NCBI GenBank assembly: GCA_015057865.1
Contig: SVDH01000005.1
Coordinates: forward strand, 29,950-93,949
Direction: 5' to 3'
DNA length: 64,000 nt
From: Lachnospiraceae bacterium
GTDB taxonomy: Bacteria; Bacillota; Clostridia; Lachnospirales; Lachnospiraceae
Of this stretch, positions 32,881 to 62,896 are shown piece after piece (position 1 is the stretch's first letter; each line of letters starts with the position of its first letter). A program made the position numbers and the translations under genes. Under the pieces are notes generated by a model. That model saw only the letters and a list, made by a program, of their open reading frames with translations, was not told where the DNA came from and did not search any database.

Positions 32881-32959
32881 CGGTTGTGTTTTGCAAAAAG
32901 CAGATGTGAAAAGGAAAGAATCCTTTGTATCTGCAAAATCAAATATTGGGAGGCATATC

Positions 32960-33871
32960 ATGAATCGATATATAAAAAAAGGAACAGTAATCGCATTGAC
33001 GGCAGCGTTCATCGCGACCGCCGGCCAGACGGCTGCTTTTGCGGCAGATGGGAATTATGATACGAAGGAAACGTATTTATCCCTTGGCGCAGACTTAAGC
33101 GACAGTGAAAAAGCGACTGTTTATGAGCTTTTAGGGATCAAAGAGGGAGAGATTCCGGAAGACCAGATCCAAAAGGTTACAAATGAGGAGGAACACCAGT
33201 ATCTGGATTCCTATATTCCGTCAAATCAGATTGGCACCAGGGCACTTTCCTCCGTTCTTGTGACGGAAGCCGCAGACGGGAAAGGGATTGATGTCACGAC
33301 AAAGAATATCGGTTATTGCACAGAAGGCATGTATGAAAATGCACTTGCAACAGCCGGTGCGAAAGACATCGATGTTGTCGTTGCAGGTCCGTTTGAGATC
33401 TCCGGAACCGCAGCACTTGTCGGCGCGATCAAGGCGTATTCCGAAAAAACCGGAGAAACGGTGGATGAGGAAACGGTAGATGCAGCGATCGATGAGATGG
33501 TCACGACGGGTGAACTCAAAGATAGCATGGCCGAATCCGTTGAAAGCGGAGAAGTATCCGACGAAGCAGTAGAAGGCATGGTGGCATGGCTGAAGGAAAA
33601 GGTGGCAAACAGTGACGATGAAGATCTTGACGCGCTGATCGATGAAGGGGAGGAAAAGTTTGGTGTTTCCCTGACTGAAGATGAGCAGGCACAGTTAAGA
33701 GATCTGCTTCGGAAACTTTCTTCTTTGGATCTTGATGTGAAATCCTTGAAAGATCAGGCACAAAGCATTTATAATAAGCTTGATGATATGGGTATCCATG
33801 TTTCATCAGAAGATGCAAATGGGATCATTCAGAAGATCATGGCATGGTTGAGAGGTTTTCTGAATAAGTAA
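32960..33871 (+). CDS. secreted DUF1002 (YpuA-like) protein
   Basis: Signal peptide ending AAFA and LSLGADLSDSEKATVYELLGI-type repeats that I recall from DUF1002. GGGAGG SD before the ATG at 32960. Confidence 0.6.
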   Translation: MNRYIKKGTVIALTAAFIATAGQTAAFAADGNYDTKETYLSLGADLSDSEKATVYELLGIKEGEIPEDQIQKVTNEEEHQYLDSYIPSNQIGTRALSSVLVTEAADGKGIDVTTKNIGYCTEGMYENALATAGAKDIDVVVAGPFEISGTAALVGAIKAYSEKTGETVDEETVDAAIDEMVTTGELKDSMAESVESGEVSDEAVEGMVAWLKEKVANSDDEDLDALIDEGEEKFGVSLTEDEQAQLRDLLRKLSSLDLDVKSLKDQAQSIYNKLDDMGIHVSSEDANGIIQKIMAWLRGFLNK

Positions 33872-33896: not shown

Positions 33897-34964
33897 ATGA
33901 AATACGAAATACACAATGACCGTATCGTGATGCGGGATGAGAACGGAAAAGCGGTTGCGCAGATTCAGTACCCGGAAGTAGGAAAGAATGTAAACGAGAT
34001 CGCGCACATTTACGGAGAGAATTCTCCGGAAGGACGCGCACATGCGAACCTGCTGATGGAGATGGCTGTTGCTGAGATCAGAAAAAACGGTCGCATGCTG
34101 ATCCCCGGATGCGCATTTGCCACGCATTGGTTTACCAAACATCCGGAAGAGCAGGATGTGGTGACAAGCTGGGATGCGCTAAAGGAAATGGAAGCAGCGC
34201 TGTATGGCGAGCCGACAAAAGAGATTTCTCCTGTTAACAGCAGTGCGCAGGCGGGCGTGTCCGGAGAAACGGGGAATATCGGTAAAGTCGGAAAGCAGGA
34301 TGAGGAAGCTGCCCGGCTGGAAAAGGATAAAAAGCAGTTTGAGGAAGATGTCCGTTCTGCGAAAGAGCGAAAGAAAGCGCAAAAAGAAGCGCGGAAGAAA
34401 GAACTTGCCAGACAGCAGGAAGAAGAGAGACAGCTTGCAATTCTAGAAGACGCAAAGGAAGAAGAAGAAAAGATCAGAAAAGGGGAGGCACGTCTGGATA
34501 GCTCGCTTACGGTTGTTTTGCGTGTACTGCAGGTGATCTCCATGCTGTGTATGGTGGCGGTTCTGGCATTTTATTTTTCAGCAGCGATCACAGAAAAGAT
34601 TTATATCGTTGAGAATTTCCCGCAGCTGATCTGTCTCGGCTTATCAGCGTTTATCCTGATCTTCGGAGTAATCCAGATCATCTGGATCATGACGAGGAAA
34701 AGACTCCGTGATGAGTTTGGAGACAAGCTGGATATCCGATACGATGCCGGCCGGGGTGTGTTCGGGTTTATCGTTATCCTGATCATTTCGCTGGTCTGCG
34801 GATTCGCGGTGAATTATGTACCGGAAGGACTGGTTGATTTGATTGGCATTTCTCAGTTTTCCGAAATCTATCAGATGCGGATCATGCCGATCGTATACGC
34901 GGCGATCGCAGGCCTTGTGCTCTGCATCATCCGGAAGGCTGCAGGTAGAACGCTTGTAAGGTAA
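33897..34964 (+). CDS. GNAT-like (YjdJ-type, ~90 aa) domain, Lys/Glu coiled-coil and 4-TM C-terminal domain
   Basis: The N-terminus (HIYGENSPEGRAHANLLMEMAVAEIRKNGRMLIPGCAFATHWFTKHPE) resembles the short GNAT fold. The middle is KE-rich. The C-terminus has four hydrophobic helices. Confidence 0.55.
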   Translation: MKYEIHNDRIVMRDENGKAVAQIQYPEVGKNVNEIAHIYGENSPEGRAHANLLMEMAVAEIRKNGRMLIPGCAFATHWFTKHPEEQDVVTSWDALKEMEAALYGEPTKEISPVNSSAQAGVSGETGNIGKVGKQDEEAARLEKDKKQFEEDVRSAKERKKAQKEARKKELARQQEEERQLAILEDAKEEEEKIRKGEARLDSSLTVVLRVLQVISMLCMVAVLAFYFSAAITEKIYIVENFPQLICLGLSAFILIFGVIQIIWIMTRKRLRDEFGDKLDIRYDAGRGVFGFIVILIISLVCGFAVNYVPEGLVDLIGISQFSEIYQMRIMPIVYAAIAGLVLCIIRKAAGRTLVR

Positions 34965-34976
34965 TCGGGAGACAAT

Positions 34977-35852
34977 ATGCCGTTTACGTATGAACAAAAA
35001 GAAATACAGGGAGAGGCAGCTGCGCAGGTGACAGGCTATGAAGGGGAAGTATCCCGGCTGCGGATACCGGAGCAGATCGATGGACTTCGGGTCCTTGGTA
35101 TCGGCAGCAATGCTTTTTCCTGGAGAGAGGATATCAAAGAGGCAATCCTGCCTGAGCATCTTAGGGTGCTCGGGGGGTTTGCCTTTTACAATTCTAAAAA
35201 CCTTCAAAGCATCACGCTCTATGACGGAGTCGAGGATTATCATGACGGCGTGATCCGTCACTGCAAAAACCTTTCTGAGATCCGTGTGAATATGACTAGG
35301 GAAAACTATGTGCTTGTGAAGGCACTTCTGGGTGACAATGACAGGATGCTGCGGCTGGTGCTGGATACAAAGAAGGAAACCATTTGTCTGACATTTCCCG
35401 AATACTTCAGTGATTATATTGAAGACACCCGTGCAAGGGCATTTCATACAAAGATCGAAGGCGCGGGGTACCGTTACCGGGAATGCGTGACCGGCAAAGG
35501 GATCCTTTATCAGGAATATGACGAGGTCTTTATCCGGGCATCATCTTACGACGGCCCTTCTGCGGCCAGGATCGCATTGGATCGTCTGATGTTTCCGCAT
35601 GAGCTGAGTGCCTACGCGAAGAACCGCTATGAGGAATATCTGCGTATGGAAATGGAATCCATCCTGCCGGAACTGATCGACAACAGACAGGAGGATGTGA
35701 TCACATTTCTTGCCAGACGTGATCTGATCGGAGAAAAAGCGCTTGAGAAAGGCATTTTTCTGGCTTCGAAGCAGAATGCGGTTTCAATCAGTGCCCGATT
35801 AATGGAGGCACAGCAAAAGGTGAGAAAGCCCGCGGGCAGATTTGTGCTGTAA
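34977..35852 (+). CDS. cytoplasmic leucine-rich-repeat (BspA-type LRR) protein
   Basis: Repeats of the type IPEQIDGLRVLGIGSNAFSWREDIKEAILPEHLRVLGGFAFYNSKNLQSITL. No signal peptide. Confidence 0.6.
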   Translation: MPFTYEQKEIQGEAAAQVTGYEGEVSRLRIPEQIDGLRVLGIGSNAFSWREDIKEAILPEHLRVLGGFAFYNSKNLQSITLYDGVEDYHDGVIRHCKNLSEIRVNMTRENYVLVKALLGDNDRMLRLVLDTKKETICLTFPEYFSDYIEDTRARAFHTKIEGAGYRYRECVTGKGILYQEYDEVFIRASSYDGPSAARIALDRLMFPHELSAYAKNRYEEYLRMEMESILPELIDNRQEDVITFLARRDLIGEKALEKGIFLASKQNAVSISARLMEAQQKVRKPAGRFVL

Positions 35853-35876
35853 CGGGAAGAGGAGACATAGAACTGT

Positions 35877-37199
35877 ATGAAGCAGAGACAGGAACTGGAA
35901 AAGATGGGGAATCGCATCTTATCGGCGTCCCGGACAGAGCTGTTTTTATCGATGCGTTTTCTGGGGCCGGCGCTGGACGGACTGGACTGTGTGATGGATG
36001 TATCCACACGGACGATCGGAACAGACGGGGTGTCTTTGCGTTATCATCCGGACTATGTATTCCGTACCTGGATGGCACATCCCTACCGGGTCAACCGGGC
36101 ATACGTCCATATGCTCATACACAGCCTGTTCTGTCATATGTATCATGCGAAAGACTATGAAGATATCGGGTTGTGGAATCTCTGCTGTGATATTGCAGCG
36201 GAATCCATACTGGATTCGATGGATTCGGAGGCAGTACGTGTCTGCCCCTCTGACTTCAGGGAAAGCTGGTATGAAAAGCTTGACAGGGAAGTCTCTGTGC
36301 TGACGGCAGAAAAGCTGTATGCATGGTTTTACGGACAGAAACGGGACGCGTATCTGGAAGAGCAGCTGCGCAGAGAGTTTTCGACGGATGATCACAGTTT
36401 CTGGGAACGGCTCGAAGATGAAAAGGAAAAGCCGCCGGAAAATCCGGATCTGCCGGTACAGAATCCGGAAGATGACTGGAATGAAAAAGCCAAGCGGCTG
36501 AAGGAAGATCTGGAATCCCGGGGATCGGAAGCGGCTGATGAGTATGGGACGCTGTCACGTATTCTGCGGGCTGTTTACAGAAAGCGCACGGACTATCGGA
36601 AATGGCTGGAGCGTTTTTCTGTATTGCGGGAAGAGACAAAGATCGATCCCGATTCATTTGATTATCATTTCTATTATTACGGACTCTCTCTGTATGGCAA
36701 TATGCCGCTGATCGAGGAAAACGAGTTTTGCGAAAGCAGGAAAGTGGAAACACTGGTATTGGCGATCGACACATCGGCGTCATGCCAGCCCGCACTGGTA
36801 CAGGAGTTTGTAAATGAGACCGTTTCCATTCTGAAATCGAAAGAGAGTTTTTTTCGTACAGTAGACATTCATATTGTAGAATGCGATAATCAGGTGCAGC
36901 GGTGTATGCATTTAAAACGACTGGAAGATATTGATGCATGGAAAGATACATTTACGGTTTCCGGCGGATTCGGTACAGATTTCCGGCCTGTTTTTCAATG
37001 GGTTCGGGATATGCAGAACAAAGGCGCGCTGCAGACACTCAAAGGATTGCTTTATTTTACGGACGGATACGGCATCTATCCGGAAGAAGCAACACCTTAT
37101 GAAACGGCATTTGTCTTTTGGAACGATGCGGATGAAGGGGAAGTCAAAACCCCTGACTGGGCCCAGCGTCTGTATGTCGAGCCGGGTGGTGAAATATAG
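35877..37199 (+). CDS. DUF2201-type protein: metallopeptidase-like N-domain plus vWA domain
   Basis: The N-domain has an H-x3-H-x4-H helix (VHMLIHSLFCH) in which the usual Glu appears replaced by Met. The C-domain has the MIDAS motif LAIDTSAS and GGFGTDFRPVF. Confidence 0.7.
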   Translation: MKQRQELEKMGNRILSASRTELFLSMRFLGPALDGLDCVMDVSTRTIGTDGVSLRYHPDYVFRTWMAHPYRVNRAYVHMLIHSLFCHMYHAKDYEDIGLWNLCCDIAAESILDSMDSEAVRVCPSDFRESWYEKLDREVSVLTAEKLYAWFYGQKRDAYLEEQLRREFSTDDHSFWERLEDEKEKPPENPDLPVQNPEDDWNEKAKRLKEDLESRGSEAADEYGTLSRILRAVYRKRTDYRKWLERFSVLREETKIDPDSFDYHFYYYGLSLYGNMPLIEENEFCESRKVETLVLAIDTSASCQPALVQEFVNETVSILKSKESFFRTVDIHIVECDNQVQRCMHLKRLEDIDAWKDTFTVSGGFGTDFRPVFQWVRDMQNKGALQTLKGLLYFTDGYGIYPEEATPYETAFVFWNDADEGEVKTPDWAQRLYVEPGGEI

Positions 37200-37214
37200 T
37201 GCAGGAGAAACAGG

Positions 37215-38741
37215 ATGAACATCAAAGAAGCCAGACAGGAAATTATCAATACGGTAAAAGCATATCTGAAAAAGGATGAAACGGGTGCTTATGTGATTCC
37301 GACGGAAAAACAGCGGCCGATCCTTTTGATGGGACCGCCCGGGATCGGGAAGACAGCCATCTTAGAGCAGGCGGCGAATGCCTGCGGGATCAATCTGATC
37401 GCCTATACGATCACGCATCATACCAGGCAGAGCGCGATCGGTCTGCCGTTTATCGCGACACGAACATATGACGATAAGGAGGTCTCTGTAACAGAATATA
37501 CGATGAGTGAGATCATTGCTTCGATCTATGACCGGATCGAGCAGACGGGGATCAAAGAGGGGATCCTGTTTCTCGATGAGATCAATTGTGTCTCGGAGAC
37601 GCTTGCGCCTACGATGCTTCAGTTTTTGCAGTATAAGACCTTTGGCGCGCATCACCTGCCGGAAGGATTTCTGATCGTAACGGCAGGAAATCCTCCGGAA
37701 TATAATAAATCCGTTCGCGATTTTGATATCGTAACACTTGACCGTGTGAAGCGGATCGATATCAAAGAAGACTATCCCGCCTGGAAAGAGTATGCATATC
37801 GCGCAGGTGTACATGGCGCGATCATGGCCTATCTGGAGATTCGGAAAGAGCATTTTTATTCCATCCGTGTGGACCTTTCGGGAAAACACTTTGTGACAGC
37901 CAGAGGATGGGAGGATCTCTCGCGGATCCTTACCGTTTATGAGGATCTTTCGCTTCCTGTGACACAGAGTCTGATCATTCAGTATCTTCAGGATGAAGAG
38001 ATCGCGGCAGGTTTCTCCGTTTACTATGACCTCTATCAGAAATACCATGAGATCTATCATGTAGAGGAGATCATGGAGGGCACAGCATCCGTCGATGCAG
38101 ATGTGATGCGGCAGGCGCCGTTTGATGAAAAGCTCACCCTGATCGGGCTTCTGGTTGACCGGTTGAACCGGGAGTTTCGCGTGTACGACAGGGAACGGCG
38201 TGTGCAGGAAGGCATTTTTACAGAGCTTCGCCGGATCAAGGAAGCGGCTTCCAAACCGGATGCCGGTGAACAGGCAGATGAGATCAGAGAACTGCTTTCG
38301 GAGCGGATCACCCAAAAAAGAGAGTTCTATGAGAAGCAAAAGGATGCGCATCTGCTCGATCATCACGAAGAAGATGTGCAAAGACGCGTACTGGCGCAGC
38401 TTAATGAACTGTATCGTGCGCTAAGCATGCAGAAAGCGGACAGAGAAGCTGCCGGTCTGCGCTTTGTCAGCGATTGGTTTGCTGTGCGGGAAGATGCGCG
38501 GCAGCAGGCCATCACACAAAGCGGAGAACACCTGACCAACGCATTTGCCTTTCTTGCGGAGATCTATGGAGAGTCACAGGAGATGGCACTGTTTTTATCA
38601 GAACTGGCCGCCGGATATTACAGCCTGAAGTTTGTCAGTGAATGCGGCAATGATGCATATGATAAGTACCAAAAGCTTTTACTTACAAAAGACAGACGGC
38701 ATGAGATTGCAGAGGAGCTGCAGTCATTCCTTCAGATCTAG
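37215..38741 (+). CDS. MoxR-like AAA+ ATPase (AAA_5 type)
   Basis: Walker A GPPGIGKT, Walker B ILFLDEIN, a long helical C-terminal extension. AGGAGA SD. Starts 15 nt after the vWA gene. Confidence 0.8.
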   Translation: MNIKEARQEIINTVKAYLKKDETGAYVIPTEKQRPILLMGPPGIGKTAILEQAANACGINLIAYTITHHTRQSAIGLPFIATRTYDDKEVSVTEYTMSEIIASIYDRIEQTGIKEGILFLDEINCVSETLAPTMLQFLQYKTFGAHHLPEGFLIVTAGNPPEYNKSVRDFDIVTLDRVKRIDIKEDYPAWKEYAYRAGVHGAIMAYLEIRKEHFYSIRVDLSGKHFVTARGWEDLSRILTVYEDLSLPVTQSLIIQYLQDEEIAAGFSVYYDLYQKYHEIYHVEEIMEGTASVDADVMRQAPFDEKLTLIGLLVDRLNREFRVYDRERRVQEGIFTELRRIKEAASKPDAGEQADEIRELLSERITQKREFYEKQKDAHLLDHHEEDVQRRVLAQLNELYRALSMQKADREAAGLRFVSDWFAVREDARQQAITQSGEHLTNAFAFLAEIYGESQEMALFLSELAAGYYSLKFVSECGNDAYDKYQKLLLTKDRRHEIAEELQSFLQI

Positions 38742-38810: not shown

Positions 38811-41540
38811 ATGTTTTTTGACAAAGAAGACAAATACGCGCAGCGGACGATGTTCATCACAGAGTCGCATAAGCGTTATACCTATCAGACTGTTTACAAA
38901 CTGCAGGATCAGATGACCGATCAGCTGATGCCGCGCAGTCTTGTTTTGATCCTTTGTAAAAACTGTGTTCCGGCGATTGCGATGTATCTGGGTCTGCTTC
39001 GCAAAAACATGGTACCGATCCTGATGGATGAGCATGTGACGGCAGGTTTTTTAAAAGAGTTTATGGCAGCTTACCGGGTCAACGCGGTATTGTTGCCGGA
39101 GAACCGGAGAACGGAGATCAGAGGCGGTGAAACGCTCTGGAACGGAGAGGGGTACAGTCTGATCGGGATCAGGAAAGCCGGCCCTGTGATGTCACCGGAT
39201 CTGGCACTGCTTGTACCGGTTTCGGACCGTACGGGAAGCCTGATGATGGTCCGCTACTCCAAAGAGAATCTTCAGGCGGGAACAGAAAGTGCGGCTGCGG
39301 TGCAAAAGATCGTGGGCGGAGACCGGCTGATCACAAATCTGCCGTTTCATTTTTCATTTCCGCTGACCATACTCCACAGTTATATTCTGCGCGGTGCGCA
39401 GATCCTGCTTACGGAACGCAGCGTGACGGAGCGCGGCTTCTGGCAGTTTTTTCATGATGAAGAAGCCTCTGCGCTATGCGCGTTCCCGCACACCTGTCAG
39501 ATGCTGTGGCGGATGCACATAGACAAAATGCATATCCCGGGACTCCGGACGCTGGCGATATCCGGCGGATCGCTTCCTGTGACGCTGCAGAAAGATCTGG
39601 CAGACTGGGCATCGATCCGCGGCGTACGTCTGTTGATCTTTTATGGGAAGACAGAAAGCGCGGGATTCATGGCACACCTTGGCAGCAGGGACAGTTTAAA
39701 AGTCCTGAATTCGATCGGCAGACCGAATGCGTTCGGCAGAATGGAGCGGATCGACAAAAACGGCCGCCTGATCACAAACGGCAGCCAGGTGGGTGAGATG
39801 GTCTATTATGGAGAGAATGTTTCTCTTGGATACGCCGGAAACACAGATGATCTTCGCAGAGGAGATGAACACAAGGGTGTTTTGAAGACAGGCGATCTTG
39901 CGGTCTGTTCAGAGCAGGGATACTATTCGATCCGCGGAAGATCGGAACGCTTCCTGAAAGTGACAGGGATCCGGATCGATCTAGATGAGCTGGAGCGGCT
40001 GTTGAAAGACCGCTGGAACCGGAACTTTGCCTGCGTGGGAACAGATGATCTCTTAGAGATCTTTGAAGAAGCGCGCCAGGTGGAAGCACCGCCGGATGAT
40101 GAGAGCGATGCAGGGGATGGCCTGGTCTTTTTAGAGGTGGAAGATAATAAAAAGGGAAGACGGGGGCGTCGTGCAAAAAAGGGAACGGGTCCGATCAGAG
40201 AGATTCCGTCGACACAGCTGGAAGAAAAACCGGAAGAGATAAAAGAAGGCGGACAGCAGGCGGATTGGAAGACGACGAATCCGACCATATGGGCCTGGAC
40301 AGCAAAGCGTCTCGGAATCCCGAAGCATATGATCCGATATACGATTTGTAAAGAAATTCCAAAAGAGGTTCAGGATACAGATTATACAAGCAAGGAGAGG
40401 CACATGATTTACAGAACTTTTCAGGACATGAAACTGTCAGCTTTAGGTATGGGAGCGATGCGGCTTCCGGTCATTGACGGAGATGACAGCAGGATCGATA
40501 AAGAACGGACACAGGAAATGGTTGATTATGCCATGGCAAACGGTATCAATTATTACGATACCGCATGGGGATATCATGACGGTAATTCCGAGCTCGTGAT
40601 GGGGGAGGCTTTAAAGAAATATCCGCGTGAAAACTTTTATCTGGCAACCAAATTTCCGGGATATGATCTTTCCAATATGCCAAAGGTAAAGGAAATCTTT
40701 GCAAAGCAGCTGGAAAAATGTCAGGTAGACTATTTTGATTTTTATCTGGTTCACAATGTCTGCGAACTGAATATCAACGAATATCTGGATGATGCACAGT
40801 TTGGCATCGTTTCCTACTTAAGAGAACAGAAAGAAGCAGGAAAGATCCGCCATCTCGGTTTTTCCGCGCATGGCAGCGTAGAAGTAATGAAACGGTTCCT
40901 GGATGCATACGGTGAGTACATGGAATTCTGTCAGATCCAGCTGAACTATCTTGACTATTCCTTCCAGGATGCAAAAGGCAAGATCGAGCTGCTCAAAGAG
41001 TGGAATCTGCCCATCTGGGTCATGGAACCGCTGCGCGGCGGGCGTCTGGCAAAATTGAATGATGAAGAAACAAAACTTCTGGCTTCCCTGCGTCCGGACG
41101 AAAAGGTGCCAGCCTGGGCATTCCGTTTCCTGCAGAGCATTCCGGAAGTGACGATGATCCTGTCCGGTATGTCTGATTATGATCAGATGAAGGAAAATAT
41201 CGAGACCTTCGCGACGGATGCACCGCTTTCGGAAAATGAATGGAATGAAGTACTCGCAATGGCAGACAGGATGCTGCAGACAAAGACACTGCCGTGTACG
41301 GCGTGCCATTATTGTACCAGCCATTGCCCGCAGGAACTGGACATCCCGTGGCTGATCGAATTATACAATGAGCACGGTTTTACAGGTGGTGGATTCCTGG
41401 CGCCGATGGCATTGGCGTCCGTGCCAAGGGAAAAGAGGCCGTCTGCATGCATCGGATGCAGAAGCTGTGAGGCTGTTTGTCCGCAGCAGATCAAGATTTC
41501 CGAAGCAATGGCAGATTTTACCGAGAAATTAAAGCAGTAA
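38811..41540 (+). CDS. fusion: adenylate-forming (AMP-binding) enzyme-like domain plus aldo/keto reductase with C-terminal 4Fe-4S ferredoxin motifs
   Basis: AMP-binding motifs FYGKTES, LKTGDLA, IRGRSERFLKVTGIRIDLDELE, with a degenerate P-loop (VSDRTGSLMM). An internal AAGGAGAGG SD precedes the ATG at 40404, which starts a complete AKR (MIYRTFQDMKLSALGMGAMRLP...) ending with CTACHYCTSHCP and CIGCRSCEAVCP. Confidence 0.75.
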   Translation: MFFDKEDKYAQRTMFITESHKRYTYQTVYKLQDQMTDQLMPRSLVLILCKNCVPAIAMYLGLLRKNMVPILMDEHVTAGFLKEFMAAYRVNAVLLPENRRTEIRGGETLWNGEGYSLIGIRKAGPVMSPDLALLVPVSDRTGSLMMVRYSKENLQAGTESAAAVQKIVGGDRLITNLPFHFSFPLTILHSYILRGAQILLTERSVTERGFWQFFHDEEASALCAFPHTCQMLWRMHIDKMHIPGLRTLAISGGSLPVTLQKDLADWASIRGVRLLIFYGKTESAGFMAHLGSRDSLKVLNSIGRPNAFGRMERIDKNGRLITNGSQVGEMVYYGENVSLGYAGNTDDLRRGDEHKGVLKTGDLAVCSEQGYYSIRGRSERFLKVTGIRIDLDELERLLKDRWNRNFACVGTDDLLEIFEEARQVEAPPDDESDAGDGLVFLEVEDNKKGRRGRRAKKGTGPIREIPSTQLEEKPEEIKEGGQQADWKTTNPTIWAWTAKRLGIPKHMIRYTICKEIPKEVQDTDYTSKERHMIYRTFQDMKLSALGMGAMRLPVIDGDDSRIDKERTQEMVDYAMANGINYYDTAWGYHDGNSELVMGEALKKYPRENFYLATKFPGYDLSNMPKVKEIFAKQLEKCQVDYFDFYLVHNVCELNINEYLDDAQFGIVSYLREQKEAGKIRHLGFSAHGSVEVMKRFLDAYGEYMEFCQIQLNYLDYSFQDAKGKIELLKEWNLPIWVMEPLRGGRLAKLNDEETKLLASLRPDEKVPAWAFRFLQSIPEVTMILSGMSDYDQMKENIETFATDAPLSENEWNEVLAMADRMLQTKTLPCTACHYCTSHCPQELDIPWLIELYNEHGFTGGGFLAPMALASVPREKRPSACIGCRSCEAVCPQQIKISEAMADFTEKLKQ

Positions 41541-53265: not shown

Positions 53266-53294
53266 GTTGACACACAGAATATAAAATGCTAGAA
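53266..53294 (+). promoter_or_regulatory. candidate promoter for rplJL
   Basis: TTGACA, 17-nt spacer, TAGAAT. Confidence 0.5.
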
Positions 53295-53299
53295 TAGCA

Positions 53300-53500
53300 A
53301 AGCAATTGCCGAAGACAGCAGGTGCCAAAAGGCGTAATCATTGTGAGCCTGCCGAGGGAATTTACAAAGAGACGCGAAAGCGTATATTGTAAAGAGTTTA
53401 TACTCCCTCTGTCTTGTGCAGGCAGAGGGAGTTTCTTGTATACACTCCCGTGGCAATTTTTGTAACCATTGTGCACGAATCAAAAGGAGGTGTACGTTTC
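53300..53500 (+). promoter_or_regulatory. structured 5' leader of rplJ (position and type of the Firmicutes L10 leader/attenuator)
   Basis: A ~200-nt untranslated leader between the promoter and the GTG start. It contains the hairpin ACTCCCTCTG (53402-53411) / CAGAGGGAGT (53423-53432), followed by TTCTTGT. I cannot verify the covariation model by eye. Confidence 0.5.
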
Positions 53501-55127: not shown

Positions 55128-55301
55128 CTAAAAACCATAAAATTTCCTTGACACTTGACATACATTTATGATATCCTTATTTGCGCTTTACTGCGTAAAC
55201 ATGGGTGAACTATGCCCTGAGCAGTGAAAATGCACGAAATCTGATATGATTTCTTAGGACTTTTACCAAAAAACACGCATATTTTGAGAGGTGGAACGTC
55301 A

Positions 55302-58300
55302 ATGGAGAAAAACAGAATACGTCCGGTCGAGGCCGGAAGAAACATGCGTATGAGTTATTCCAGACAGAAGGAAGTCCTGGAGATGCCCAACCTGATCGAG
55401 GTTCAGAAGGAATCCTATAAGTGGTTTCTGACCGACGGGTTGAAGGAGGTCTTCGAGGATGTGTCTCCGATCATGGATTACAGTGGTAATCTCAGCCTGG
55501 AATTCGGGGACTTTACACTATGTACGGATGAAGTGAAATATTCCATACAGGAGTGTAAGGGAAGGGATATGACTTATGCAGCACCATTGAAAGTCAAGGT
55601 GAGACTCTATAATAAAGAGGCAGAAGACATCAATGAGCATGAGATTTTTATCGGCGATCTTCCACTGATGACTGAGACGGGAACGTTTGTGATCAATGGG
55701 GCAGAGCGTGTTATAGTCAGCCAGCTGGTTCGTTCACCGGGCATTTATTATGGAATCGCCCATGATAAAGTCGGTAAGGAGCTCTTTTCGTGTACCGTAA
55801 TCCCGAACAGGGGTGCATGGCTGGAATATGAGACAGATTCAAACGATGTTTTTTATGTTCGTGTTGACAGGACCCGTAAAGTACCGATCACAGTTTTGAT
55901 CCGTGCGCTTGGATACGGGACGAATCAGGAGATCGTTGACCTCTTTGGCGAGGAGCCGAAGATCATGGCAAGTCTCGGAAAAGATATTGCAGCAAGCTAT
56001 CAGGACGGTCTTCTGGAATTATATAAGAAGATCCGCCCGGGTGAGCCGCTGTCTGTAGAGAGCGCAGAGAGCCTGATCACAGCGATGTTTTTTGACCCGA
56101 GAAGATATGATCTTGCCCGTGTAGGCAGATATAAATTCAACAAAAAGCTGATGCTGCGCAACCGGATCGCCGGCCAGACACTCGCAGAGGATGTTGTGGA
56201 TATGCAGACAGGTGAATTCCTGGCAGAAGCAGGCACGGTTGTAACAAGAGAACTTGCGGATCAGATCCAGAATGCCGCAGTTCCGGCAGTGCTGATCCAG
56301 ACAGAAAGCCGCAATGTACGTGTTCTTTCCAACATGATGGTAGATCTGCGTAATTTTGTGGATTGTGATCCGGAAGAGCTTGGGATCACAGAGCTTGTAT
56401 ACTATCCGGTACTTGAGCAGATGATGCGCGAGATCCCGGAAATTGAAGAACTCAAAGAAGCGATCAAGAGAAGCGTACATGACCTGATTCCGAAGCATAT
56501 CACCAAGGAAGATATCATCGCTTCTATCAACTATCATATCCATCTCGAATACGGAATCGGCAGTGATGATGACATTGACCACCTCGGAAACCGCCGTATC
56601 CGTGCAGTCGGTGAGCTTCTGCAGAACCAGTACAGAATCGGTATTTCACGTCTGGAGCGTGTTGTGCGGGAGCGCATGACCACACAGGATATCGAAACGA
56701 TCACACCGCAGAGTCTGATCAACATCAAGCCGGTGACGGCAGCTGTAAAGGAATTCTTTGGTTCTTCCCAGCTGTCCCAGTTTATGGATCAGAACAACCC
56801 GCTTGGCGAGCTGACGCATAAGCGTCGTTTATCAGCATTGGGACCGGGCGGTCTGTCCAGAGACCGTGCCGGATTTGAGGTTCGTGATATCCATTATTCC
56901 CATTACGGAAGAATGTGCCCGATCGAGACACCTGAAGGTCCGAATATCGGTCTGATCAACTCCCTGGCTTCTTATGCCCGTATTAACAAGTACGGCTTTG
57001 TTGAGGCACCGTATCGTAAGATCGATAAAACAGATCCGCAGAATCCGCGTGTTACGGATGAAGTTGTCTACATGACTGCGGATGAAGAAGATAATTACCA
57101 TGTAGCACAGGCAAATGAGCCGCTCGATGAAGAAGGACACTTCAAGAGAAAATCCGTTTCCGGCCGTTTCCGTAAAGAGACGCAGGAATACGAGAGAACA
57201 GCGTTTGACTTCATGGATGTCTCTCCGAAGATGGTGTTCTCAGTCGCAACCGCACTGATCCCGTTCCTGGAGAATGACGATGCGAACCGTGCGCTGATGG
57301 GTGCGAACATGCAGCGTCAGGCAGTACCGCTTCTGACCACAGAAGCACCGGTCGTTGGTACCGGAATGGAGCCAAAGACTGCAGTTGACTCCGGCGTTTG
57401 TGTCGTTGCAAAGGCAGACGGTGTGGTAGAGCGCGCATGTGCGGATGTTATCACGATCAAATATGATGAGGATGGCACCAGAGAAGACATTCGTCTTTCC
57501 AAATTCGAACGCTCCAACCAGTCCAACTGCTACAACCAGCGTCCGATCGTATTCAAAGGCGATCACGTTGAAGCAGGACAGGTCATTGCAGATGGTCCGT
57601 CTACCGCTAAGGGCGAGCTGGCACTCGGCAAGAACCCGTTGATCGGATTTATGACCTGGGAAGGTTATAACTACGAGGATGCGGTTCTGTTAAGTGAGCG
57701 TCTGGTACAGGATGACGTTTATACATCCATCCATATTGAAGAATATGAAGCAGAAGCACGTGATACCAAGCTGGGACCGGAAGAGATCACAAGAGATGTT
57801 CCGGGTGTCGGCGAAGATGCATTAAAAGATCTTGATGAGCGTGGTATCATCCGCATTGGCGCAGAGGTCCGCGCCGGAGATATCCTGGTTGGTAAAGTAA
57901 CACCGAAGGGTGAGACAGAGCTGACAGCAGAAGAGCGTCTTCTTCGCGCGATCTTCGGTGAGAAAGCACGTGAAGTACGTGACACCTCCCTGAAAGTACC
58001 GCATGGCGAATATGGTATTGTTGTTGACGCAAAGGTATTCTCGCGTGAAAACGGGGATGAGCTTTCACCGGGCGTGAACCAGGCAGTTCGTATTTACATC
58101 GCACAGAAGAGAAAGATCTCTGTCGGCGATAAGATGGCCGGCCGACACGGAAATAAGGGTGTTGTATCCCGTGTGCTTCCGGTAGAAGATATGCCGTTCC
58201 TGCCGAACGGACGACCGCTGGATATCGTACTGAATCCGCTGGGCGTTCCGTCCCGTATGAACATCGGACAGGTCCTGGAGATCCATCTGAGTCTGGCTGC

Positions 58301-59192
58301 AAAAGCGCTTGGCTTTGAAGTGGCAACACCTGTCTTCGACGGCGCAAAAGAAAATGATATTATGGATACCCTGGATCTGGCGAACGACTATGTAAACCTG
58401 TCCTGGGAAGAATTTGAAGCAAGACATAAAGAGGAGCTTCTTCCGGAAGTTCTGGAGTATCTTTATGAAAACCGTGAGCATCGGAAGCTGTGGAAGGGCG
58501 TACCGATTTCAAGAGACGGTAAGGTCAGACTTCGTGACGGACGTACGGGTGAATTCTTCGACAGTCCTGTTACGATCGGACATATGCACTATCTGAAGCT
58601 GCATCATCTGGTAGATGATAAGATCCATGCACGTTCTACCGGCCCGTACTCACTCGTAACACAGCAGCCGCTGGGTGGTAAGGCACAGTTCGGCGGACAG
58701 CGTTTCGGTGAGATGGAGGTTTGGGCACTTGAAGCGTATGGCGCATCCTATACTCTTCAGGAGATCCTGACAGTGAAGTCTGATGATGTGATCGGACGTG
58801 TTCGTACTTACGAGGCGATCATTAAGGGAACCAATATCCCGCAGCCGGGTATTCCGGAGTCCTTCAAGGTACTGTTGAAAGAGCTGCAGTCTCTTGGACT
58901 TGATATGACCCTTGAGGATGAGGACGGCAAAGAGGTTCGCCTGAAAGAAGCGAGCGAATACGGTACGACAGATTTCAATGCGATCGACCGTGATATGAGC
59001 CGTAATATGCAGCGTGACAACGAATCTGAATTTGCAGCAGCAGGTTATACCTCTCAGGAATTCAATGAGCAGGGTGAACTTGTGAACGTTGACGTGGAAG
59101 AGGAAGTGACGGATGAGTTTGATGCAGGTGAGATGGATCTGGAACCGTCAGATGACTTTGACATGGATGCGGAAGCAATGGATGAAGAGTAA
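55302..59192 (+). CDS. rpoB: DNA-directed RNA polymerase subunit beta
   Basis: Full-length RpoB (e.g. [25 protein letters not shown]). GAGAGGTGGA SD before the ATG at 55302. Confidence 0.97.
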
Positions 59193-59209
59193 GGGAAGGA
59201 GAATCGGAC

Positions 59210-62200
59210 ATGGCAGATTTAGCAAATAAAGATAACGTACAGAACCCAACGTTTGATGCCATTCGGATCGGACTGGCTTCCCCTGAAAAGATCCGCGAAT
59301 GGTCACACGGCGAAGTAAAAAAGCCTGAGACGATCAATTACCGTACACTGAAGCCGGAAAAAGACGGCTTGTTCTGTGAGCGCATTTTCGGACCGAGCAA
59401 GGACTGGGAATGCCACTGCGGAAAGTATAAGAAGATTCGCTATAAAGGTGTAGTCTGCGACCGATGCGGCGTAGAGGTTACAAAATCCAATGTCCGTCGT
59501 GAGCGGATGGGACATATTGAACTGGCAGCACCGGTTTCCCATATCTGGTACTTTAAGGGAATCCCGAGCCGCATGGGACTGATCCTGGATCTGTCCCCGC
59601 GTGTGCTGGAGAGAGTTCTTTACTTTGCATCCTATATTGTTCTGGATGCCGGAGATTCCGGACTTGCATATAAGCAGGTGCTGACCGAGGGTGAGTATCA
59701 GGAAGCACTGGAAAAGTACGGCATGACATTCCGTGTCGGTATGGGCGCGGAAGCAGTTCGTGAGCTTCTTGCAGCGATCGATCTGGAGAAAGAGTCTGAA
59801 GAGCTGAAGGATGAACTGAAAAAATCAACCGGCCAGAAACGCACACGTATCATCAAGCGTCTGGAAGTGGTGGAGGCATTCCGTGATTCCGGAAACAAAC
59901 CGGAATGGATGGTCATGACCGTTATCCCGGTCATTCCGCCGGATCTTCGCCCGATGGTACAGCTTGACGGTGGCCGTTTCGCGACATCAGATCTGAACGA
60001 TCTGTATCGTCGGATCATCAACAGAAACAACCGTTTGAGCCGTCTGCTTGAGCTTGGCGCACCGGACATCATCGTTCGCAACGAGAAGCGCATGCTCCAG
60101 GAAGCAGTAGATGCGCTGATCGACAACGGCCGTCGCGGAAGACCGGTTACAGGACCGGGCAACCGTGCACTGAAATCGCTTTCTGATATGCTGAAAGGTA
60201 AGGGCGGACGCTTCCGTCAGAACCTTCTGGGTAAGCGTGTTGACTATTCCGGACGTTCGGTTATCGTCGTCGGACCGGAACTTAAGATCTATCAGTGCGG
60301 TCTGCCGAAAGAAATGGCGATCGAGCTGTTTAAGCCGTTCGTTATGAAAGAGCTTGTTGGAAACAAGACAGCACATAACATCAAGAACGCAAAGAAGATG
60401 GTGGAAAGACTTCAGCCTGAGGTCTGGGATGTGCTTGAAAAAGTCATCAAAGAGCATCCGGTTATGTTAAACCGTGCCCCCACACTGCACCGTCTGGGTA
60501 TTCAGGCATTTGAGCCGATCCTGGTAGAAGGTAAGGCGATCAAGCTGCATCCGTTGGTATGTACTGCATACAATGCCGACTTTGACGGCGACCAGATGGC
60601 GGTTCATCTTCCGTTGTCTGTAGAGGCGCAGGCAGAATGCCGCTTTATGCTTCTTTCACCGAACAACCTGCTGAAACCGTCTGACGGCGGTGTCGTTGCG
60701 GTTCCGTCCCAGGATATGGTACTTGGTATCTATTACCTGACACAGGAGCGTCCGGGTTCCATCGGAGAAGGTCACTGCTTTAAGGACCTTGGGGAAGCCA
60801 TCATGGCATATGAGAACAAGGAACTCATTCTGCAGAGCCGTATCAAGGTCCGTGTGACAAGACAGATGGCGGACGGAAGCAGCAAGACAGGCCTGGTAGA
60901 GTCTACACTCGGCAGATTCCTGTTTAATGAGATCCTTCCGCAGGATCTGGGATTTGTTGACCGCTCCGTGCCGGAGAACGAACTGGCTCTGGAAGTTGAC
61001 AAGCTGGTCAAGAAAAAAGACCTCAAAGAGATCCTTGAGCGCGTGATCGGTGTACATGGCGCAACGAAGACAGCTGAAGTACTGGATGCGATCAAGTCTA
61101 TGGGATACAAGTATTCCACACAGGCCGCAATGACGGTATCCATTTCCGATATGACCGTGCCGGCTGAGAAGCAGCAGATGCTTGATGAGGCGCAGGCAAC
61201 CGTTGACAGCATTACAAGGAACTATCGCAGAGGTCTTCTGTCCGAGGAAGAACGTTACAAAGAAGTCGTACAGACCTGGAGAGATACCGATGAGAAACTG
61301 ACAAAGGTACTGCTCGATGGTCTGGATGAATTTAACAATATCAACATGATGGCGGATTCCGGAGCCCGTGGTTCCGATAAGCAGATCAAACAGCTTGCAG
61401 GTATGCGTGGACTGATGGCAGATACAACCGGTCGTACGATCGAGCTGCCGATCAAGTCGAACTTCCGTGAAGGCCTTGACGTTCTGGAGTATTTCATGTC
61501 AGCGCACGGTGCACGTAAGGGTCTGTCTGATACAGCGCTTCGTACAGCCGATTCCGGTTACCTGACGAGACGTCTGGTAGACGTTTCACAGGAGCTGATC
61601 ATCCGGGATGAGGATTGCTGCAAAGACGCACCGGAGATCCCGGGTATGTATGTATCCGCATTTATGAAGGGCAAGGAAGAAGTCGAAAGCTTCCAGGAGC
61701 GTATCACAGGACGTACCTCATGCTATGATGTCGTTGACAAAGACGGCAACGTGATCGTTGGAGCAAATCAGCTGATCACACCGAAGCGCGCGGCAGATAT
61801 CGTAGAAAAGGGTCTTGATGAAAACGGTGTTCCATTTGCAGAGCAGGAGAAGGAAGTACGGAAGTTAAAGATCCGTACGATCCTGAAATGCCGTTCCCAT
61901 CTGGGTGTTTGCGCAAAATGCTACGGTATGAACATGGCAACCGGCGCACCGGTACAGGTTGGTGAAGCGATCGGCATCATCGCAGCACAGTCGATCGGTG
62001 AGCCCGGTACTCAGCTTACCATGCGTACCTTCCATACCGGTGGTGTGGCAGGAAGCGATATCACACAGGGTCTTCCGCGTGTCGAGGAGCTGTTTGAGGC
62101 ACGTAAGCCGAAAGGTCTTGCGATCATCACTGAATTTGGCGGCAAGGCAGAGATCCGTGATACAAAGAAGAAACGTGAAGTCGTTGTAACAAATGATGAG

Positions 62201-62896
62201 ACAGGCGATTCCAAGACATATCTGATCCCGTACGGATCCAATATCAAGATCCATGACGGTGATGTGCTTGAGGCCGGCGATGAGCTGACAGAAGGTAGTG
62301 TGAATCCGCATGATATCCTGCGGATCAAGGGTCCGACAGCGGTTCAGGATTACCTGCTCAGAGAAGTACAGCGTGTATATCGTCTTCAGGGTGTTGAGAT
62401 CAACGATAAACACATCGAGGTTATCGTTCGTCAGATGATGAAGAAGATCCGTATCGAAGATAACGGAGACTCCGCATTCCTGCCGGGAACTCTGATCGAT
62501 GTGCTTGATTTTGAAGAGATGAATGAAAAGCTTGTTGCAGACGGTCTTGAGCCGGCAACCGGCAAACAGGAACTTCTGGGAATCACAAAAGCATCTCTGG
62601 CTACGAATTCGTTCATGTCAGCTGCTTCCTTCCAGGAGACGACAAAGGTATTAACCGATGCGGCGATCAAAGGAAAAGTCGATCCGTTGGTTGGCTTGAA
62701 GGAAAACGTTATCATCGGAAAACTGATACCGGCCGGCACAGGTATGAAGCGTTATCGCAATCTGCAGCTGGATTCTGATTTCACGATCAATACGAAGATC
62801 GATCTGGATGATCTCGGATTAGAAGAGGAAGCACCGGAAGTCACAGAAGAACCCGCGGATGAAGCGGAAGAGACTGTTGTGACGGAAGAAGCATAG
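59210..62896 (+). CDS. rpoC: DNA-directed RNA polymerase subunit beta'
   Basis: Zn-finger [20 protein letters not shown], catalytic NADFDGD. Confidence 0.97.

Follow-up and report, generated by a model that had tools for sequence, protein, structure and literature searches.

A conserved unit of three genes

The window analysed here (the whole stretch of 64,000 nucleotides (nt) from contig SVDH01000005.1 of the Lachnospiraceae bacterium assembly GCA_015057865.1) contains a string of four genes transcribed in the same direction, coding for a GNAT-like protein with transmembrane segments (GNAT-TM), a leucine-rich repeat (LRR) protein with a helical domain, a vWA (von Willebrand factor A) protein and a MoxR-like AAA+ ATPase. 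A preliminary description, made from the sequence alone, had presented them as a tightly packed string of unknown function. The vWA protein is referred to below as the adaptor, the LRR/helical protein as the third subunit, and the last three genes together as the trio. The four genes are:

33897-34964, + strand: gene for the GNAT (Acetyltransf_CG)-KE-rich-4TM protein (KE-rich, rich in Lys and Glu), identified by open reading frame (ORF) and Pfam PF14542
34977-35852, + strand: gene for the LRR/helical protein (third subunit, 291 amino acids (aa)), identified by Pfam LRR_5
35877-37199, + strand: gene for the DUF2201_N/DUF2201 vWA protein (adaptor, 440 aa), identified by Pfam PF13203 and PF09967
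37215-38741, + strand: gene for the MoxR-like AAA+ ATPase (508 aa), identified by Pfam AAA_5 and AAA

The genes are separated by 12, 24 and 15 nt, and the end of a DUF1002 gene lies 25 nt before the start of the GNAT-TM gene; the four ORFs and the spacing that had been claimed were recovered with exactly the same coordinates, gaps and DUF1002 distance. A Shine-Dalgarno-like sequence precedes each of the four starts. Tight spacing by itself is an ordinary operon feature; the recurrence of the LRR-vWA-AAA adjacency across hundreds of genomes exceeds chance.

The nearest relatives of the window are metagenome-assembled genomes (MAGs) from rumen and gut. A census of the trio was carried out by our own six-frame ORF calling and purpose-built hidden Markov models, and an alignment-based scan for the vWA protein, in which each species was represented by one genome, found relatives in at least 565 species genomes. 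A search with the LRR protein gave six relatives (27-47% identity), all with the DUF2201 and AAA genes adjacent and with unrelated flanks. At the best 80 vWA loci, a sample ranked by similarity, the LRR gene was located directly upstream and the ATPase gene directly downstream in almost all cases, the next commonest neighbour being a gene for a FolC-like ligase (13/73 loci). Since this sample was ranked by similarity, an unranked one was obtained with a DNA pattern for an invariant ATPase motif, which yielded a sample of 120 loci. Among the sources were Blautia, Dorea, Faecalibacterium, Ruminococcus, Oscillibacter, Lacrimispora, Oribacterium, Butyrivibrio and Anaerovoracaceae, as well as Coriobacteriia (Slackia, Eggerthella and Paraeggerthella). 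Three gene orders were found, LRR-vWA-AAA (53 loci), vWA-AAA-LRR (17) and vWA-LRR-AAA (6), and a partner gene was adjacent or one gene away in 81 of the 86 loci with enough flanking DNA. The vWA and ATPase genes were adjacent in essentially all loci. Flanks of the trio differed between lineages, the flanking genes being housekeeping ones, and a fourth conserved gene was found neither in the close sample (best 80) nor in the broad one (120 loci). Linkage held through permutation of the gene order and changing flanks is strong evidence of a functional unit. The adjacency of LRR, DUF2201 and AAA_5 genes, whose conservation across Clostridia it had been suggested to check, was kept, and the conserved unit is one of three genes (LRR, vWA and AAA), not the four-gene string. 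For the LRR gene, the ratio of nonsynonymous to synonymous substitution rates (dN/dS) was 0.12-0.14, and the other genes of the trio had values of 0.05-0.11; inheritance of the trio looks chromosomal and vertical.

In Paraeggerthella (L130) and Eggerthella (L140), a vWA-AAA pair with all the features of this clade (loss of the catalytic Glu and a PLIEPLE insert, see below) was found with no partner detected nearby. Only about 260 nt upstream of the vWA gene are included in the 8-kb stretch of L130, so that an upstream partner may exist there. Slackia (L115) and other Eggerthellaceae (L137) do have the partner gene, and the cases of Paraeggerthella and Eggerthella may represent lineage-specific loss or relocation.

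The GNAT-TM protein matched Acetyltransf_CG (PF14542) over residues 10-88 (1.8e-13, 50.8 bits, above the gathering score) and the YjdJ structure 5i0c (6e-8), and these are followed by a KE-rich stretch and about four hydrophobic segments (residues 202-350), so that Pfam and the hydrophobic segments agree with the make-up originally proposed for this protein (GNAT fold, KE-rich region and four transmembrane segments). Its gene adjoined the trio only in L002 and L003/L011, and it was also present on a separate contig of the L001 genome; the vWA proteins of the three relatives bearing it are 86-92% identical to that of the window. At all of the approximately 73 other trio loci it was absent within ±6-7 kb. 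The GNAT-TM gene is, in consequence, a lineage-specific neighbour and not part of the conserved module, contrary to its earlier inclusion in the system, and it is possibly co-transcribed with the trio in the window. An arrangement in which GNAT-TM acts as a membrane-anchored fourth component in the lineage of the window, for example by acetylating or tethering the complex, would be in line with the 12-nt gap between its gene and the LRR gene with no terminator in between, with retention of the arrangement in three close relatives, and with purifying selection on the gene. Such shared synteny is expected anyway because the vWA proteins of these relatives are 86-92% identical, none of the approximately 73 other loci carries the gene within 6-7 kb, and elsewhere the upstream genes vary (FolC-like, threonine-aldolase-like, histidine kinase). 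As a general component of the unit the four-gene version is largely refuted, and we consider it extremely improbable for the lineage of the window as well.

Properties of the three proteins

In the adaptor, a zincin-like N-terminal domain (DUF2201_N) is joined to a minimal vWA domain (DUF2201) by an acidic linker that is disordered. The following features were located in its gene:

36108-36137, + strand: degenerate zincin motif HMLIHSLFCH (H78, H82 and H87), with Met for the Glu of HExxHxxxxH
36693-36728, + strand: clade-specific acidic insert YGNMPLIEENEF, just before strand beta-1 of the vWA domain
[quoted passage not shown]
36972-36980 and 37059-37067, + strand: remaining MIDAS residues, T367 (in GTD) and D396 (in TDG)

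Pfam matches were obtained with DUF2201_N (PF13203; 1.4e-7, 31.9 bits versus a cut-off of 23.2, and 27 bits for the N-domain alone) and with the DUF2201 vWA family (PF09967; 4.2e-12, above the gathering score). The AlphaFold2 model had a mean confidence score (pLDDT) of 76 overall and of about 88 in the N-domain. Its C-terminal domain matched the vWA folds of Rpn10, integrin I-domains and C2a with a Foldseek probability of 1.00; this search of the Protein Data Bank (PDB) was dominated by the vWA domain and silent on the N-domain. Full-length structural matches of the model were phage proteins annotated as 'Metallopeptidase/VWA-like', and no match was obtained with the adaptor sequence against solved structures. 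Neither the adaptor nor the ATPase contains hydrophobic segments, and both are predicted to be cytoplasmic. One 718-aa Eggerthella 'vWA' ORF was discarded as a start-codon artefact of high-GC DNA.

The MIDAS had been described as intact, and DTSAS, GTD and TDG are indeed all present, with D298, S300, S302, T367 and D396 invariant in 81 sequences. The acidic insert, with the clade consensus MPL[IV]EPxE, is invariant or nearly so in the vWA alignment and occurs in nearly all clade members. The three zincin His (H78, H82 and H87) were likewise invariant in the 81 aligned clade sequences. The catalytic Glu was missing from all 81 of them and was present in only one sampled locus, the position being occupied across the clade by M, L, T, S, I, V, C, Q, A, G or P, with E at that single locus. 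The replacement of the HExxH Glu by Met noticed in the window (VHMLIHSLFCH) was verified, and its loss proved to be clade-wide, distant relatives retaining HExxH. The sequence thus describes a homologue of DUF2201_N proteins that is very probably not a peptidase. Since the three metal-binding His are kept and the catalytic Glu is lost, the N-domain most likely binds peptide instead of cutting it.

The same three His could alternatively be read as a metal relay, the trio then being a system for metal-cofactor insertion or maturation of a specific metalloenzyme, as NorQD, CoxDE and chelatase-type pairs are. Many characterised MoxR-like/vWA pairs do serve metal-centre maturation, and invariance of the His despite lost catalysis would fit such a role; a structural zinc site explains their retention equally well, and no metalloenzyme gene was linked to the trio in any sampled lineage. 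This alternative is considered quite unlikely, and a peptide-binding N-domain is the reading followed below.

The ATPase comprises an AAA+ module (residues ~30-316, + strand), in which the motifs listed here were judged invariant in an alignment of 71 sequences, and a C-terminal extension:

37332-37355, + strand: Walker A, GPPGIGKT, invariant
37404-37514, + strand: insert YTITHHTRQSAIGLPF…TEYTMSEI between Walker A and Walker B, invariant
37566-37580, + strand: Walker B, LFLDE, invariant
37680-37694, + strand: sensor 1, TAGNP, invariant
37734-37748, + strand: TLDRV Arg-finger motif, invariant
38163-38738, + strand: clade-specific helical C-terminal extension of ~190 aa, no Pfam match

Pfam AAA_5 (1.5e-8, 35.1 bits, cut-off 22) and AAA (PF00004; 3.5e-8, 34.4 bits, likewise above its gathering score) scored equally well, so that the MoxR assignment is not exclusive, and a weak match to bpMoxR (20 bits) was below the cut-off of 27. 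The 37-residue invariant insert between Walker A and Walker B sits where, from the sequence, the helix-2 insert of MoxR-type proteins would be expected. In profile comparisons with hhalign, the ATPase aligned with the 'MoxR family ATPase' of the Synechocystis plasmid pSYSA over residues 35-316 (99% probability), a protein that was named MoxR by the annotation pipeline PGAP and that partners a DUF2201 protein. With E. coli RavA the probability was 86% over only 64 columns, from Walker B to sensor 1. Among PDB sequences, the ATPase matched midasin best. The motifs, the AAA_5 match, the pSYSA match and the adjacent vWA gene agree with the earlier view that a MoxR-type AAA+ ATPase paired with a vWA protein forms the core. 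Fusions of the ATPase with the LRR or vWA protein ('Rosetta-stone' proteins) were sought in 150 representatives and none was obtained (0/150), the long ones being read-through artefacts or one methyltransferase fusion. The latter representative (P0190, 792 aa) carries a C-terminal SAM-dependent methyltransferase-like domain (VLDVCCRRGKG), and it may represent either a genuine fusion or an error of assembly or gene calling.

Two features were located in the third-subunit gene:

35556-35849, + strand: C-terminal helical 'docking' domain (residues ~194-291), the part that helical-only partner genes encode elsewhere
35832-35849, + strand: conserved C-terminal tail, …AGRFVL

The third subunit matched Pfam LRR_5 (1.6e-9, 38.2 bits versus a cut-off of 27.7), and its family profile matched structures 4gt6, 4fs7 and 6mlx. 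In the AlphaFold2 model (pLDDT 95.4; predicted TM-score, pTM, 0.90), a short LRR_5 solenoid is predicted to be followed by a beta-rich junction and then by a C-terminal helical bundle. Foldseek searches with this model matched only LRRs of the TpLRR/BspA type, over 120-150 residues; no structural analogue of the helical domain was found in this fold search, and no Pfam family matches it. The repeat type (LRR_5) and the fold are shared with BspA/TpLRR-type proteins, which are secreted or surface-located and have many repeats; the third subunit, in contrast, is short, has a unique helical domain and a tail, and contains neither a signal peptide nor a hydrophobic segment, so that it is predicted to be cytoplasmic. 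The signal-less LRR protein was rightly regarded as a real partner, given its conservation at 81 of the 86 assessable loci.

Conservation in the third-subunit family peaks at residues ~140-170 (the beta-rich junction) and at the extreme C-terminus, and D182 and R203 are invariant. Sixty-nine of 81 family members end in [FYW]-x-[LIMV]-COOH, typically as F-E-L after a stretch of basic residues; the ending is L-[E/D]-[E/D]-W in a Lachnospiraceae subclade and GRFVL in the protein of the window. Both tail types were found inside one vWA subclade, and the C-termini of the vWA and ATPase proteins showed no comparable conservation. At several loci (L099, L124, L131 in Lactonifactor, L217 and L219) the partner gene, coding for 113-202 aa, is helical-only. 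Because such partners exist, the helical domain is the constant element, and the N-terminal LRR is a dispensable and faster-evolving module; perhaps the N-terminal repeat module is exchangeable. In a Clostridia MAG, the vWA-AAA pair has upstream of it a gene (L160:1893-3257, +) for a protein of 454 aa that contains DUF4116 repeats and matches the helical domain weakly, which may represent an exchange of the repeat module.

The conservation pattern also allows the LRR/helical protein to be viewed as the client, the MoxR-vWA pair gripping its tail or an acidic residue to unfold, release or activate it, and the LRR protein performing the real function. MoxR-vWA systems are usually encoded beside their target, as established for CbbQO, NorQD and CoxDE, and the only conserved neighbour here is the LRR/helical protein; moreover, its conserved extreme C-terminus resembles a recognition tag, and the block at residues 141-170 together with the invariant D182 and R203 suggests a functional site of its own. 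Nevertheless, the pair is also accompanied by helical-only partners of about 115 aa that lack both the LRR and the conserved junction, which fits a docking subunit better, and no enzymatic or other functional domain was detected in the LRR/helical protein. A client role is judged unlikely, and the protein is treated in what follows as a subunit of the machine.

Origin, relation to known systems and proposed function

Plasmids and phages commonly carry more distant DUF2201 proteins, of 21-30% identity. In Synechocystis pSYSA, the 341-aa 'MoxR family ATPase' gene is followed by a vWA-like gene, and the homologue in phage G is gp576. The conjugative megaplasmid pRK1-1 of Cupriavidus basilensis carries a triplet coding for an ATP-binding protein, a DUF3150 protein and a VWA-like protein with intact HExxH (L094, 2943-6167), a three-gene setting of this adaptor family that differs from the trio. 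The homologues from pSYSA, pRK1-1 and phage G all have the canonical HExxHxxxxH (HEVLH/HELLH), and the MPL[IV]EPxE insert is missing from all three. Viral relatives were compared at the best 80 viral-contig loci, comprising 74 distant loci and six members of the Clostridia clade. Among the 74 distant loci, the Glu was kept in 65, an AAA+ neighbour was present in 56 (short, ~345-420 aa where listed) and an LRR-family partner in none; among the six clade members, the Glu was kept in none, an AAA+ neighbour was present in five and an LRR-family partner in four. Partner ATPases of the distant two-gene pairs have 331-422 aa. Compared with the mobile pairs, the cellular clade has lost the Glu and has gained the PL[IV]EPxE insert, the ATPase extension of ~190 aa and the third protein. 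As the clade has shed a catalytic residue and acquired new parts together with a third subunit, the trio would be a derived cellular form of a two-gene system of mobile elements; from these comparisons it appears to be a cellular derivative of the MoxR and zincin-vWA pair that is frequent on phages and plasmids.

Some viral-labelled sequences carry the trio. Six faecal contigs recorded as 'UNVERIFIED: Bacteriophage sp.' (L098-L103: MT835935, MT836813, MT837836, MT837937, MT839739 and MT838983) contain it, and L098 was the one of them whose flanking genes were examined. A phage origin of the L098 trio was rejected: its flanks are bacterial (FolC, DegV, M18 aminopeptidase and class IV aminotransferase), and the contig looks like a mislabelled bacterial fragment. 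Three IMG/VR sequences classed as viral (L227, L228 and L230) have the full cellular-type trio, lacking the Glu and having an LRR partner and an ATPase of ~500 aa; they may be flanks of prophages or wrongly classified.

The closest known systems are these MoxR and DUF2201 pairs of phages and plasmids (pSYSA, pRK1-1, gp576 of phage G and the 'metallopeptidase' of cyanophage S-TIM5), which share with the trio a homologous ATPase and an adaptor with both Pfam domains, an intact MIDAS and the overall fold, and which are, like the trio, functionally uncharacterised. They differ in keeping HExxHxxxxH, in their short ATPase, in the absence of the PL[IV]EPxE insert and in having no LRR/helical partner (0/74); in pSYSA, moreover, the ATPase gene comes before the vWA gene. 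NorQ/NorD and CbbQ/CbbO resemble the trio in combining an ATPase with a two-domain adaptor (N-terminal specificity domain, disordered linker and C-terminal vWA domain with a MIDAS), but their N-domains are unrelated in sequence, and they are two-component systems encoded beside client genes (NOR and RuBisCO), whereas the trio has a dedicated third subunit and no linked client. In these systems, one vWA adaptor sits on a MoxR hexamer, the MIDAS binds an acidic group of the target and the N-domain gives specificity (PMC9976466). In eukaryotic ribosome assembly, Midasin/Rea1 with Rsa4/Ytm1 likewise uses a ring of AAA_5 type and a MIDAS that takes hold of an acidic residue in a dedicated adaptor, and assembly factors are thereby removed or remodelled; the resemblance is a functional analogy only, midasin being a single giant polypeptide whose adaptors use ubiquitin-like domains and not LRR/helical domains. 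The trio is not among the described members of the types NorQD, CbbQO and RavA-ViaA. Literature searches on DUF2201, COG3864, 'VWA-like domain-containing protein' and MoxR with LRR in Clostridia found no functional study, and the earlier impression that the combination is not a described system held, no description being found in the searchable literature. The trio is viewed here as a MoxR-vWA system whose adaptor is a pseudo-peptidase and to which a new obligatory subunit has been added.

Kaur et al. (2020, PMC7159879) described ternary MoxR-vWA conflict systems in which VMAP, iSTAND, FtsH or a beta-propeller serves as the third component. They have in common with the trio a MoxR-vWA pair and an obligatory third protein; they differ from it in that third component, in possessing effector domains, in their variable or mobile neighbourhoods and in their hosts, which are multicellular bacteria, the hosts of the trio being gut Clostridia and Coriobacteriia and its bpMoxR match lying below threshold. 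Given the different third component, the lack of effectors and the subthreshold bpMoxR match, the trio is not a system of this kind. An anti-phage or conflict role, with the LRR sensing the invader and the MoxR-vWA pair setting the activation threshold, might still be proposed from the formally ternary composition with a repeat-containing third component, from the frequency of relatives of the pair on phages and plasmids, and from the weak bpMoxR match (20 bits, cut-off 27). Nonetheless, no effector domain was found in the proteins and no effector gene at the loci, the third component is none of the four known types, the neighbours are housekeeping genes and not defence islands, purifying selection acts on the LRR gene (dN/dS 0.12-0.14) and the trio is broadly and vertically conserved in chromosomes. 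A known defence system was also discarded by a PADLOC-DB scan of the four proteins, which gave marginal matches only (IetA 9e-4, at P-loop level; AbiZ 2e-3, in the KE-rich region) and nothing for the LRR or vWA proteins; no PADLOC match was significant, and no neighbourhood had the character of a defence island. In the absence of PADLOC matches, effectors and defence-island context, and with low dN/dS and vertical-looking inheritance, defence is the weakest of the client, metal-cofactor and defence alternatives, and very improbable. Of the two roles first suggested for these genes, sensing or defence is thus disfavoured and a dedicated chaperone-like set fits better; the trio looks like a housekeeping protein-remodelling machine and not a defence system.

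We propose, with a probability of about 0.5, that the trio is a non-proteolytic three-subunit cytoplasmic AAA+ remodelling machine with a dedicated adaptor, derived from the mobile MoxR-zincin-vWA pair. If NorQ/NorD and CbbQ/CbbO are taken as models, the MoxR-like ATPase would form a ring, on which the vWA protein would dock via its vWA domain, passing ATP-driven movement to whatever the MIDAS grips by an acidic group. The dead zincin domain, with a metal held by the three His, would serve as a module that binds peptides. The third protein would be anchored by its helical domain and tail to the adaptor's pseudo-peptidase cleft, to its MIDAS (via the terminal carboxylate or a penultimate acidic residue) or to the C-terminal extension of the ATPase. 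The LRR would recruit a conserved cellular client, and the client complex would then be remodelled, assembled or disassembled. A more specific version is offered tentatively as a possibility: a protease module of phages or plasmids was domesticated, and its dead protease became the receptor for the tail of a new adaptor that delivers a core client, the whole being widely conserved in Lachnospiraceae, Oscillospiraceae and Eggerthellaceae.

Several points weigh against this proposal. No client was found, and no obvious target is encoded beside the trio, unlike in cbbQO, norQD and coxDE. The tail-binding surface on the partner proteins is a guess. Five of the 86 assessable loci, including that of Eggerthella, have no detectable partner, and the vWA-AAA pair may be able to work without it. 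The retained His triad could reflect residual or alternative catalysis instead of pure binding. As for the ATPase, the PDB sequence profile matched its P-loop region only, with classic AAA+ proteins scoring as well as midasin, and its assignment to the MoxR class comes from Pfam AAA_5, profile comparison and motifs.

MoxR-vWA pairs are among the least understood AAA+ systems, a handful having known clients (CbbQO, NorQD, RavA-ViaA and CoxDE). The trio is a distinct and easily recognised variant, present in hundreds of species that are dominant in the gut communities of humans and ruminants, in genera that include Roseburia, Blautia, Dorea, Faecalibacterium, Butyrivibrio and Slackia, and this distribution makes it likely that the client is a conserved piece of their physiology. 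Comparison with phages and plasmids provides an evolutionary series from a zincin with its active site to a pseudo-enzyme with a new subunit. The annotation 'predicted metal-dependent peptidases' would lead one to expect proteases, an expectation that is corrected for this clade. Handles for experiments are offered by the MIDAS, the three zincin His, the PL[IV]EPxE insert, the tail of the third subunit and its naturally occurring helical-only forms.

Transcription signals and neighbouring genes in the window

The preliminary description had reported no terminator until well downstream of the string, and none that was credible was found on the + strand between 33.9 and 41.5 kb. Terminator-like sites in the region were at chance level (10 seen versus 10.4 expected), with none above chance inside or just after the string. 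Promoter-like sites were not above chance either (17 seen versus 13.3 ± 3.5 expected). The best of them, given here as a consensus match only, was:

33746-33775, + strand: sigma-70-like promoter match, TTGAAA-18-TATAAT (11/12)

This match falls within the 3' end of the DUF1002 gene, upstream of the string. The DUF1002 family was assigned by Pfam (1.3e-67, above the gathering score). The listed start of its ORF (32891-33871, +) is a TTG, and an in-frame ATG at 32960 is the likelier start, since it is preceded by GGGAGG and a typical signal peptide, MNRYIKKGTVIALTAAFIATAGQTAAFA, results.

Further downstream, a ribosomal protein L10 leader (RF00557, 74 bits) lies at 53291-53446 (+) and is followed by rpoB/rpoC-sized ORFs (55284-62896), which confirm a core chromosomal setting of the window; it is an ordinary piece of chromosome from a Lachnospiraceae/Eubacterium-like organism. 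Between the string and this region, 69 nt downstream of the ATPase gene, a 909-aa ORF (38811-41540, +) combines an adenylate-forming (AMP-binding) domain, a linker of low complexity, an aldo/keto reductase domain and a 4Fe-4S dicluster domain. This fusion, of unusual architecture, is conserved in L001 and L003 and possibly belongs to the same transcript as the string.

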